In this document: one piece after another, positions 60,887 through 64,000 of the stretch
Numbering within the stretch: position 1 is the stretch's first letter
Layout: each line of letters begins with the position of its first letter
Source of the DNA: Candidatus Latescibacterota bacterium
GTDB taxonomy: Bacteria > Krumholzibacteriota > Krumholzibacteriia > WVZY01 > JAKEHA01
DNA: 64,000 nt
Assembly (NCBI GenBank): GCA_963707635.1
Contig: OY970173.1
Span: forward strand, 672,001 to 736,000
Direction: 5' to 3'
Made by a program: the position numbers and the translations under genes
Notes under the pieces: model-generated
Seen by the model: only the letters and a program-made list of their open reading frames with translations
The model's database searches: none
Told to the model about the DNA's origin: nothing

Positions 60887-60902
60887 TGGCATGTTCCTTG
60901 CG
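60887..60902 (+). promoter_or_regulatory. Sigma54 promoter
   Basis: TGGCAT-N5-TTGCG. Confidence 0.7.
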
Positions 60903-60987
60903 TGACGGGACCGCGCCTCCACACGCGCCGGACCGTTCTCGACACGCCGATTTCACACCGGCGGCGCCAAACGCAAGGAGTCACATC

Positions 60988-62793
60988 GTGGATCGCAATA
61001 GGCCCCCTGCACTGACTTCCCCGTGGAAGGTTGGCTTTCTGGTAGCGCTCATGCTCGTGGTCACCGGGCTGGGCGTGAGCTACTTCATCACGGGGACGTT
61101 CGGAGTGTCGTGGCACTGGCTCACGGTGAGTGGCCCCTCGCCGACGCAGTGGGCGTTCAACCTCTCCGCGTTCGCGTCGGAGATGCTGCCGCTGATCGGG
61201 CTGATTTCGATCCTGGCGTTTGCGACCTCCGTGCTCGTGTCGGGGGCGGTGCGCCGTTACAAGACCTACGTGGATTCGGGCGCCCAGTACAAGGACCTGC
61301 TCCGTTCGATCAAGAGCATCGACGACCTCGAAGACGAGGAGAAGCTCGACCAGCTCAAGCAGCACCCCGAGCTGCGCGAGTTCCTGATGGGTCTCAAGCA
61401 TCGGCTTGCCGCGCGCGACCGCCAGAACACGGAGAAGGAACGCAAACACCCCGAGCCGAACCGTGCCTCCGCGCGCATCGAGACGCTCGCCTCCGAAGCC
61501 GCCGCGCTCCTGGGAGCGATCACCGACGGCAAGGAGGGGCTGGCGCGCGAGCTGTCGCTCTCCATTCCCGAACTGAAACAGATCGAACGCGCCGTTCGCC
61601 AGCGCCTGAGCAACCAGCAGACGCCGGTGCGCGACGAGAAGGGCGATTCACAGCGACAGGAACTCGAGGCGAAGCTCGGGTCGATGCGCGGAGCGGTGAG
61701 CGCAGCGCGCCGCGACGCCGACGCCTGTTCCGCCGGGGCGCGCGAGCTCGAGGCGGCGGTGGCGGCGGTGAAGCAGTCGATCACGGCCGCGGCTTCGGCC
61801 GCGCCGGCCGCGGGAGACGTTGCCGGTCTGGCGAAGCGGGTCGACGCGCTGGCCGACGCGCTGGCGACCCTCGGCGAGGAAACCAAACGGATCGCCATCG
61901 CATCGGCGCTGCAGGCGAGCGGAGGCAGCGAAGACGATTCCATTCGCGTGGCGGACGAAGTGCGCGCGATTGCGACACGCTTCAACACGGTCGCCCAGCA
62001 GTGGAAGGAGAGCGCGCCCGCGTTGCGCCGTGCGCTCGAGTCGGCGTCGGGTTCGGCCGCGGCCACCGAGCGCCAGCGCGCGACGGTGTCGAAGTCCGTT
62101 GCGACCGCGGCGAGCAAAGCCAGCCTGTGGAGTGAACGACTGGTGGTGCTGGCCGAACAGGTACGCAGTCTCGAACAGCTGGCCGGCGGATCCGGGGTCG
62201 CGGCGGAAAGCCCCCGAGACTGGGGGACCGTCGACATCGGATCGCCGACGGACTCCGCGAACGCGGCGCAGACGGAGACCCGCTACGAAGCTCCCGCGGC
62301 GACCGACGACGAGTTCCTCACCCAGTCACCCGCAAACGTGTTTGGGGAGGGTGGCCGCGAAGACGCGCCCTTCGTCGACATTCCGGGATTCGAGAAGGAA
62401 GGCAAGTTCTTCGTCGGGGCAGCGAACCAGCCCGAAGGCGAGGCAGCGGAGCACGAGCCCGAACAGGACGGTCGCTTCGTCGTGGACGGGAACAACGCCG
62501 AGGGCTGGGACTTCGCCGCCCAAGAAGAGAAGAAGGCGGCCGACCCCGAACCGGCGCCCGCGCGGGAACCGGCGGGAGCAGACAGCGATGGCTTCCTCAC
62601 CGGCCCCCGTTCCACCCTCGCCGCGAAGGTCAAGAAAGCGCTCCGCCAGGCGCCGCCGGCCGCCGAGGAAGCGGAGCGCCCGAGCGCCAAGGCGACCGAG
62701 CGCGGCTCCGTGGCGACGATGGACAGCGAGCCCGGAGTCATCGACCTGTACGCGCTGGGCGCGGTGGATTTCGACGAGCGCGTGCACGCCTAA
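60988..62793 (+). CDS. Two-TM coiled-coil protein with degenerate MCP signalling tip and acidic disordered tail
   Basis: AAGGAG RBS + GTG; ETKRIAIASALQAS...RVADEVRAIATR resembles [14 protein letters not shown]...[10 protein letters not shown]. Confidence 0.65.
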   Translation: MDRNRPPALTSPWKVGFLVALMLVVTGLGVSYFITGTFGVSWHWLTVSGPSPTQWAFNLSAFASEMLPLIGLISILAFATSVLVSGAVRRYKTYVDSGAQYKDLLRSIKSIDDLEDEEKLDQLKQHPELREFLMGLKHRLAARDRQNTEKERKHPEPNRASARIETLASEAAALLGAITDGKEGLARELSLSIPELKQIERAVRQRLSNQQTPVRDEKGDSQRQELEAKLGSMRGAVSAARRDADACSAGARELEAAVAAVKQSITAAASAAPAAGDVAGLAKRVDALADALATLGEETKRIAIASALQASGGSEDDSIRVADEVRAIATRFNTVAQQWKESAPALRRALESASGSAAATERQRATVSKSVATAASKASLWSERLVVLAEQVRSLEQLAGGSGVAAESPRDWGTVDIGSPTDSANAAQTETRYEAPAATDDEFLTQSPANVFGEGGREDAPFVDIPGFEKEGKFFVGAANQPEGEAAEHEPEQDGRFVVDGNNAEGWDFAAQEEKKAADPEPAPAREPAGADSDGFLTGPRSTLAAKVKKALRQAPPAAEEAERPSAKATERGSVATMDSEPGVIDLYALGAVDFDERVHA

Positions 62794-62817
62794 CGCTTCA
62801 CTCATAACAGACCCACC

Positions 62818-64000
62818 ATGGACAGCCGGTCGCTCTTTGCCAAGCAGGTTCGCTCGCAGTGCGAAACCCTGTGCGAGCTGCTCGCCTGCTCGGCCGGCCA
62901 TCCCGTCCCCGACACTGTATTGGAACGCTGCAAGGTCAGCATTCGCATGCTGGCGGGCACCATGCTCGTGCTCGACCTGGACGACTGGGAGCGCCTGCTG
63001 CGGGGGCTCGAAGCGCTCCTGACCGTCCACGGAGAACGTCGCATCGCATGGGACGAGCGCGTCGCCCAGCTGATCTTCGAGCTCATCGAGAAGGAAGAAT
63101 TACTCGCGTCCTGTCACGAACGGGACGGCGAGGTCGGCGGCCGCAATTCGGTGCCCAGGCAGGAAGTCGAGGCCCTGATCGCGGAGGTGGAGGCGCTGCG
63201 CCAGGAGTCCGAGCTCGCCCCCACGATTCCGGTGGTCGCGACCCCGGCGCCGGTCGAACGATTCGGCCGGGTTGCCGCCGAGTTCGGAGCCGCGTGCGAG
63301 CGCGTGCTGGCGGCGGTCTCGTCCGAGCCATGGCAATCGCGCTCGGCCGATGCGGCCTTCGTCGAAGAACTGCGCCGCGGCCTCGGCACCATCGAGTTCT
63401 ATGCCCAGGCGTTGGATCGCATCGTCGCTTCCATCGAAGGGAACGTCGTGTCGCCGAAATGCGACCTTGCGCCGCTCGAGACCGCGCTGGGGGATTTCGC
63501 GATGGAGCTTACGCGGGGCACGGGGCGGTCGCTCGCGATCCGGCTGCGCGCCAGTGAGATCGAAATCGAGCCTGGGCTGCTGCCGGCCGCGTACTGGATT
63601 CTCCACGCGATGGTGGCGGACGTGTTCGAGCGCTGCGACGAGCCTTCGATCGAGGTGGGGGTCGACGTGTACGATCGCAACGGCGCCCTTTACTGGCGCG
63701 TGCGAGACAACGGCGAGACCTTCTTCTCCGACTCGCGTCTCGACCACGAAGACCAGCTCGCGTTCTACCCCGGGCTGCGCCACGTGGTGCGCACGCTGCG
63801 CGAGCACCGCGGGACGCTCGCGGTCGAGCCCAACGGCGGGGCCGACGGGCGCTTCGAGTTCACGCTGCCGGCCTCGACCCAGGCGGAAGCGCTGGTGGTG
63901 TGGGAACAGGGCGGCAAGTCCTTCGCGGCGCGCGCGGTCCAGGTTGTCGAGGTGATCTCCTCCCAGACCGAGCTGAGGCGCGAGGACGCGTACGGCGAGT
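62818..64000 (+). CDS. Degenerate CheA-like protein (Hpt-like, HATPase-like, CheW-like start), truncated at window edge
   Basis: Manual translation open to the window end (MDSRSLFAKQ...VRDNG...FYPG...RFEFTLP...); missing from ORF track. Confidence 0.65.
   Translation, partial: MDSRSLFAKQVRSQCETLCELLACSAGHPVPDTVLERCKVSIRMLAGTMLVLDLDDWERLLRGLEALLTVHGERRIAWDERVAQLIFELIEKEELLASCHERDGEVGGRNSVPRQEVEALIAEVEALRQESELAPTIPVVATPAPVERFGRVAAEFGAACERVLAAVSSEPWQSRSADAAFVEELRRGLGTIEFYAQALDRIVASIEGNVVSPKCDLAPLETALGDFAMELTRGTGRSLAIRLRASEIEIEPGLLPAAYWILHAMVADVFERCDEPSIEVGVDVYDRNGALYWRVRDNGETFFSDSRLDHEDQLAFYPGLRHVVRTLREHRGTLAVEPNGGADGRFEFTLPASTQAEALVVWEQGGKSFAARAVQVVEVISSQTELRREDAYGE

Follow-up and report, generated by a model that had tools for sequence, protein, structure and literature searches.

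Two adjacent genes in a 64,000-nucleotide stretch of a Krumholzibacteriota genome encode a membrane protein descended from methyl-accepting chemotaxis proteins (MCPs) and a protein descended from the CheA-REC hybrid kinases. The stretch, referred to here as the window, is G000:672001-736000; G000 is a 3.2-Mb single-contig genome, 96.4% complete. We call the two products pseudo-MCP and pseudo-CheA. Both genes are under purifying selection, and the pseudo-CheA has lost residues and a loop found in canonical CheA. They stand upstream of an HD-GYP protein whose own HD motif is altered. With moderate confidence, we favor the view that this module serves as a phosphorylation-independent scaffold for a type IVa pilus and cyclic di-GMP (c-di-GMP) system.

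Descent and degeneration of the two proteins

The pseudo-MCP gene (60988..62793, +) begins with a GTG at 60988, preceded by the Shine-Dalgarno sequence AAGGAG (60975-60980, +), and encodes 601 amino acids. The protein contains two hydrophobic segments (19-residue windows beginning at residues 12-18 and 59-70 score above 1.8). From the N terminus, it comprises two transmembrane helices, a helical cytoplasmic part, an MCP hairpin, an acidic linker and a C-terminal motif. Because the outer loop is only about 20 residues long, there is no ligand-binding domain. When a profile of the family was searched, solved MCPs occupied the top 13 rows (best E 1.6e-9, to 2ch7). The Pfam MCPsignal model matched 7 of 40 orthologues (best E 9.8e-7), and the G000 protein by itself gave no Pfam MCP match. 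The hairpin tip (residues 295-330; 61870..61977, +) aligns with the canonical MCP of a relative, and orthologues from other families lie nearer to the canonical tip signature. That signature is no longer present: only small Ala/Leu positions are near-invariant among 40 orthologues, and the Glu, the G-x-G-F stretch and, in this protein's family, the Arg position have been replaced. We conclude from these sequence comparisons that the pseudo-MCP descends from an MCP. The initial annotation of this DNA had described a two-helix membrane protein with a degenerate MCP tip, and the transmembrane segments, the quoted tip sequence and the descent, by profile, Pfam and alignment, all agree with it.

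The C-terminal end has its own signature. Residues 401-580 are 20% acidic and were modelled with low confidence. They are followed by the motif V-I-D-L-Y-A-L-G-A-V-D-F (62737..62772, +), a candidate docking peptide. Its family consensus is D-L-x-x-L/F-G-A-V, and the L, G and A are invariant in 43 of 43 tails. The motif is unique among the open reading frames of G000, scoring 34.9 with a position-specific scoring matrix (PSSM) vs 14.9 for the next match. It is doubled in family f7 and at many f3 loci, and a clear copy is lacking from the G047 orthologue. It is also retained in G055, G060 and G037, where the MCP hairpin has been deleted. Alignments A5 and A6 exclude L012, which has unknown residues, and seven partial or tail-less orthologues; alignment A7 excludes G013, G074 and three hairpin-deleted or shortened rows. 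We considered whether the tail mimics the alpha4-beta5 region of a receiver, which it resembles, and rejected this candidate: there was no obvious receiver segment in the top 25 PSSM matches of G000.

The pseudo-CheA gene starts with an ATG at 62818, after an intergenic gap of exactly 24 nt (62818..64000 in the window, +; its end is at window-equivalent 64776). The promoter-like site, both reading frames, the gap and the motifs quoted in the initial annotation were all found in the sequence. The CheA domain order that it assigned to the second frame stood; the extent was incomplete, as the frame runs to 652 amino acids and ends in a receiver domain. The domains are Hpt (1-134), a helical P3-like part, HATPase (215-353), CheW-like (354-487) and REC (531-650). 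An AlphaFold model built with 19 sequences had a mean pLDDT of 81.9, and in Foldseek the top 8 rows were CheA (E 7e-15 to 7e-10). Residues 1-134 superposed on CheA P1 with a Z score of 16.9 and a root mean square deviation of 2.2 over 127 residues. HHalign placed a 43-row profile against a canonical CheA-REC of the same phylum at 99.6%, colinear across 401 columns, with the ATP lid as a gap. Pfam CheW was found in 16 of 43 orthologues and HATPase_c in 14 of 43, and the C-terminal receiver matched its Pfam model with E 1.5e-13. We conclude that the pseudo-CheA descends from CheA-REC.

Has this protein retained the means to act as a kinase? Arg43 (62944..62946, +) occupies the phospho-His position, which is His in the canonical CheA control. 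His is found in this column in 1 of 50 orthologues; that protein, from G021 (L023:7056-9131), still has the N-box Asp and no lid. The N-box Asn of the control is Asp268 here (63619..63621, +), and the position is Asp in 48 of 48 orthologues. The G1-box Asp is retained as Asp297 (63706..63708, +), likewise Asp in 48 of 48. Relative to canonical CheA, the Gly-rich G2 ATP lid is deleted. Of the 37 orthologues with REC, 24 carry Glu at the receiver phospho-site and 13 carry Asp; the G000 protein has Glu at this site and E-Q at the acidic pocket. Catalytic loss had been proposed from the single sequence, and the His missing from 49 of 50 orthologues and the deleted lid uphold it. The N-box Asn, said to be lost, is indeed gone, yet it was not simply lost but replaced by an invariant Asp. 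According to PMC3848655, the same Asn-to-Asp substitution was used to inactivate CaNik1p, and loss of the N-box Asn is tied to lost ATP binding in EnvZ. Because the phospho-His, the N-box Asn and the lid are all missing, the pseudo-CheA falls outside the CheA class, and its kinase activity has probably been lost.

Both genes are nonetheless maintained. We estimated the ratio of nonsynonymous to synonymous substitution rates (dN/dS) by a counting method for 66 pairs among 12 same-genus genomes, with dS near 1. Median values were 0.17-0.26 for the folded pseudo-CheA domains, with 0.19 for the HATPase region. In the pseudo-MCP they were 0.20 for the hairpin tip, 0.24 for the transmembrane module and 0.14 for the last 21 residues. 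For comparison, linkers gave 0.5-0.7 and a neighboring hydrolase 0.125. By this measure, both genes are under purifying selection. The initial annotation had argued from the long open frames that the genes are not decaying, and the dN/dS survey it called for supports that argument.

Promoter elements shared with pilus genes

A sigma54 -24/-12 promoter, TGGCATGTTCCTTGCG, lies upstream of the pseudo-MCP gene (60887..60902, +), exactly where the initial annotation had placed a TGGCAT-N5-TTGCG promoter. Within the window alone, the pattern occurs at chance level (4 matches at one mismatch vs 1.89 expected). A site was present upstream of the pseudo-MCP in 45 of 45 orthologous regions from six families, against a background of 260 of 9800 random 330-nt stretches from the same loci (2.7%). 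Hence, conservation among orthologues supports the promoter despite the chance-level count. The features of a sigma54-dependent promoter are all found: a conserved GG-N10-GC, an upstream enhancer element, rpoN and activators, G000 encoding rpoN and 14 sigma54 activator domains.

The upstream element is a TGCA-N3-TGCA palindrome (60779..60789, +), likely an enhancer for a sigma54 activator. It is kept in 29 of 29 upstream regions of the family and order. Its distance from the -24 box is 105-109 bp in 25 regions, 108-109 bp being the commonest spacing, and 97-99 bp, one helical turn less, in the other 4; such helical-phase spacing would be expected for an enhancer. A site resembling the IHF consensus lies between enhancer and promoter in 14 of 29 regions at two or fewer mismatches, with none in G000.

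Searching for the palindrome and the sigma54 pattern together gave 75 matches in 37 of 41 genomes, vs 2 with a reversed control. Upstream of pseudo-MCP genes lay 32 of the 75, and for 33 of the 43 others we read the downstream gene. These were pilM (12), minor pilins (4), pilA (1), pilB (1) and a single lipoprotein family (13); the last two were another conserved gene and one without assignment. The second match in G000 is upstream of pilM, and the element also precedes pilM in relatives. These common promoter elements suggest that the module is co-regulated with pili. The lipoprotein-like gene of G000 (G000:C1:2181827-2182660), whose orthologues bear the palindrome and sigma54 site in the 13 loci read, is a candidate for a so far unrecognized member of the pilus regulon. 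Sigma54 sites were also seen upstream of pilA, pilM, a second PilB/GspE-type ATPase gene and GGDEF genes, and upstream of a second, long MglA-like GTPase gene (G000:C1:2323881-2325398).

G000 encodes PilB, PilT, PilC, PilA and PilM, components of type IVa pili, along with an mglBA pair and five GGDEF matches; the pil and mgl labels rest on our reading of the translations and on Pfam matches. In this 96.4% complete genome we found no match for a canonical MCP, a separate CheW, CheR, CheB, an Hpt protein or flagellin. Since CheW, CheR and CheB are absent, the module does not make up a complete chemosensory class, be it Tfp, ACF or flagellar. A pseudo-MCP is present in 163 of 208 genomes of the phylum, mostly in single copy. 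Look-alike clusters in the Atlas include Eiseniibacteriota members, which we take as a lead only.

Do the module and pili occur together? In family f3 we scored PilO or a clear PilM as the pilus marker. Among f3 genomes at least 90% complete, 39 had both pseudo-MCP and marker, 19 had neither and none was discordant; in all 91 f3 genomes, 5 were discordant. This co-occurrence is consistent with a link to pili but thin. A connection to pili had been suggested at the outset, and it is strengthened by the palindrome and sigma54 site common to pil genes as well as by the f3 pattern. PilM scores had suggested that a truncated pseudo-CheA marks the loss of pili; PilO in 62 of the 91 f3 genomes refuted this. 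Where f3 genomes have full pseudo-CheA, the Pfam PilM model is matched over its full length, but in the f3 clade with the truncated form the match covers just the first half of the model. The half-length PilM possibly reflects one event, or possibly contact between PilM and pseudo-CheA.

Natural deletions, downstream neighbors and alternative explanations

Beyond the window edge, on the same strand, the pair is followed by a second sigma54-like site 3' of pseudo-CheA (L001:5906-5920) and a 74-residue excisionase-type HTH gene (L001:5983-6207, window-equivalent 64983-65207). Next come two HD-GYP genes: one encodes STAS-GAF-HD-GYP, its HD replaced by RD (L001:6274-8019), and the other REC-GAF-HD-GYP, its motifs intact (L001:8038-9612). 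Gene order around the pair is preserved across the sampled Krumholzibacteriota families, and the two HD-GYP genes are the usual downstream neighbors. The change to RD was found in 40 of 43 orthologues of the STAS protein, the other three lacking or misaligning the stretch. In the neighboring REC-HD-GYP protein, HD is kept in 36 of 36 and the receiver Asp in 34 of 36.

Of 80 loci fetched with the HTH protein, 61 have both flanks, and the 19 that do not were excluded. A pseudo-MCP was present at 52 of the 61 and absent from 9. At these 52 loci, the pseudo-CheA was full-length in 11, lacked REC in 13 and consisted of Hpt and REC in 2; a further 14 showed REC alone by profile, and at 12 no pseudo-CheA was detected. 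In four of these 12 (L154, L156, L158 and L193), the 450 nt or less before the HTH helix leave no room for the gene, and no pseudo-CheA orthologue was found elsewhere in their genomes. These four keep a doubled tail on the pseudo-MCP; obligatory binding of the tail to pseudo-CheA was rejected on this account. Conversely, G055, G060 and G037 keep a full-length pseudo-CheA where the MCP hairpin is deleted. The STAS-linked HD-GYP domain was found at 52 of 52 loci with a pseudo-MCP and at 0 of 9 without; the loci are related, so these co-retention counts are not independent tests. Since pseudo-MCP and dead HD-GYP persist where the pseudo-CheA is cut or lost, the loci indicate that these two are the persistent unit and that pseudo-CheA is an accessory, dispensable part. 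The idea that the two proteins degenerated jointly as an obligatory pair thus fails in both directions. Because each partner survives the reduction of the other, a signaling array is unlikely to be the conserved function.

We infer that the pseudo-MCP is anchored in the membrane, probably at the pole, and that the scaffold positions or tunes the pilus machine together with the c-di-GMP-degrading pair. Through its long acidic tether, the pseudo-MCP would likely offer its conserved C-terminal motif to a binding partner, for which the dead STAS-GAF-HD-GYP protein is our first candidate and a pilus component our second. The pseudo-CheA may be an accessory adaptor, comparable to FimL in Pseudomonas, that uses its CheW-like domain to dock at the hairpin tip; its Glu-substituted receiver would be a binding surface in a fixed state. 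In a bolder form of this proposal, which we think less likely than not, a chemosensory-derived pathway used throughout the phylum would consist of dead enzymes only (pseudo-MCP, pseudo-CheA, pseudo-receiver and pseudo-HD-GYP). The former chemoreceptor would then be a tethered landmark, and its new, short terminal motif would bring a c-di-GMP phosphodiesterase complex to the pole that bears the type IVa pili, in place of polarity control by phosphorelay.

Several observations weigh against the scaffold proposal. In a quick GyrA tree built from 40 genomes, the 12 sampled f3 negatives group together as one clade (SH-aLRT 99), so the co-loss with pili in f3 counts as one event. Of 12 family f6 genomes, 7 have PilO and none has a pseudo-MCP; hence, pili can exist without the module. 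The palindrome and sigma54 site also precede the lipoprotein gene, whose tie to pili is conjectural, and GGDEF and other genes have sigma54 sites upstream as well. Many loci that retain a pseudo-MCP lack the intact REC-HD-GYP gene, and the 9 loci without the module do not count as independent cases. Asp268, Asp297 and Arg345 are invariant in 43 of 43 pseudo-CheA orthologues, which is compatible with a pocket that still binds a ligand. Against MCP descent itself stands the structural search proposed in the initial annotation: it returned CheA for the pseudo-CheA but nothing significant for the pseudo-MCP, whose monomer model (pTM 0.39) had no Foldseek match at E 0.001 or better.

Perhaps the module is instead a Wsp-like surface-sensing input to c-di-GMP turnover, acting on biofilm or, through the HTH protein, on transcription, and linked to pili by co-regulation only, with no physical tie? 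The HD-GYP genes downstream, the constant company of pseudo-MCP and dead HD-GYP (52 of 52 loci) and the pili that f6 retains without the module would all fit. However, the single f3 clade without pili also lost the pseudo-MCP, the enhancer is common largely to pil genes, and the HTH gene, with a sigma54-like promoter of its own, persists where the module has been lost. We regard this explanation as possible, though clearly less probable than a scaffold. STAS domains pair with GHKL-fold proteins, and one is encoded downstream. The pseudo-CheA might then be a nucleotide-sensing pseudokinase or partner switch, in which ATP/ADP or a second messenger toggles STAS binding in an allosteric relay. The three invariant residues and the HATPase dN/dS of 0.19 favor such a role, but the ATP lid is deleted, and 28 of the 52 loci with pseudo-MCP and the STAS-HD protein lack HATPase and CheW. 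We consider it improbable.

A residual phosphorelay is more doubtful still. An outside kinase could phosphorylate the receiver, or the pseudo-CheA could be a phosphatase for REC-HD-GYP; the receiver Asp retained in 13 of 37 orthologues, the Asp kept in 34 of 36 neighboring REC-HD-GYP proteins and the lone His at the G021 Hpt site could be read in this way. Yet the G000 receiver has Glu and E-Q at the relevant positions, REC is absent from the pseudo-CheA core at 13 of 52 loci, and G000 yielded no Hpt protein, so that we think a relay of this kind very unlikely. Least credible of all is that the genes are functionless, decaying remnants of a lost chemotaxis operon. Piecemeal domain loss in several lineages and single frameshifts in a few assemblies do resemble decay, but it is refuted by dN/dS near 0.2 and by retention in 163 of 208 genomes, syntenic where read. 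The invariant replacement residues and the conserved promoter speak against it too.

Other features of the region were recorded. The sigma54-like site of the HTH gene occurs in 28 of 28 genomes with an anchorable start, with a palindrome half-match in 17 of 28, and the gene persists at loci where the whole module is lost. It ranks among the most conserved genes that we saw, its product being 100% identical across most of the genus (dN/dS 0.007). At one locus, a transposase-like open reading frame, identified from its translation (L191:4505-5665), separates the HTH gene from a pseudo-CheA remnant of Hpt size. Upstream of the pair, a divergent conserved hypothetical gene (58711-59400, -) has a perfect sigma54 match at 59573-59588 (-). 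It is syntenic in most families read and matches no Pfam or NCBIfam family above the cut-off. Elsewhere in G000 (G000:C1:2421786-2423550), a tryptophanase/tyrosine-phenol-lyase-like gene, so read from its translation, is followed by a short open reading frame resembling the start of a second copy.

Significance and relation to known systems

Chemosensory systems are defined by receptor-controlled phosphorylation of CheA. A selected, lineage-wide version that lacks the catalytic residues, and that comes with a natural deletion series, would reveal which non-catalytic contacts merit keeping. If the scaffold proposal is true, chemotaxis architecture can be reused without its chemistry. The proposal names testable parts: a motif of about 12 residues, a common enhancer and two candidate partners. 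It would also open a first way into the circuitry that links pili, MglAB polarity and c-di-GMP in a phylum without cultured members. In the titles and abstract openings that we searched, no description of the module was found.

The pseudo-MCP resembles solved MCPs (2ch7, 1qu7 and 6s1k) in its pair of transmembrane helices, in its long helical hairpin and in the alignment of its tip with the MCP signature. Unlike them, it has an outer loop too short for a ligand-binding domain and diverged tip residues; its acidic tether of 180 residues carries a conserved motif at the end, and in some lineages the hairpin is deleted. CheA-REC hybrid kinases go by the names WspE, FrzE and ChpA in the ACF and Tfp classes. 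The pseudo-CheA shares their Hpt-P3-HATPase-CheW-REC order and fold and has an MCP-derived gene directly upstream, and the module resembles Wsp in having c-di-GMP enzymes as neighbors. It differs from these kinases in lacking the His, the N-box Asn and the ATP lid, and in the change of receiver Asp to Glu in this protein's family. Unlike their systems, the module has no separate CheW, CheR or CheB, and its outputs are HD-GYP rather than GGDEF proteins. At rank 48 of the pseudo-CheA Foldseek list stands 4q20, which we take to be DivL. DivL, whose class I kinase fold binds a receiver in its phosphorylated form, has likewise kept a kinase fold without canonical phosphotransfer; the pseudo-CheA, in contrast, is of CheA type and sits inside a cluster of other dead enzymes.

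The closest parallel is the Pil-Chp system with FimL and FimV in Pseudomonas aeruginosa and Acinetobacter baylyi, where chemosensory-derived parts are likewise tied to type IVa pili. FimL is a polar, ChpA-derived protein with Gln in place of the Hpt His (PMC3019171). In A. baylyi, pili are positioned by FimV, a membrane protein that has its C terminus in the cytoplasm and recruits both FimL and PilG (PMC9596432). In Pil-Chp, the ChpA kinase is active and FimL is an Hpt-only accessory, whereas here the sole CheA-like protein of the module is dead. The module comes without a gene for CheW, CheY, CheR or CheB, and, unlike in Pil-Chp, its membrane anchor is itself MCP-derived and carries a short terminal motif. 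By analogy, the module would work most like the FimL/FimV layer of Pil-Chp.

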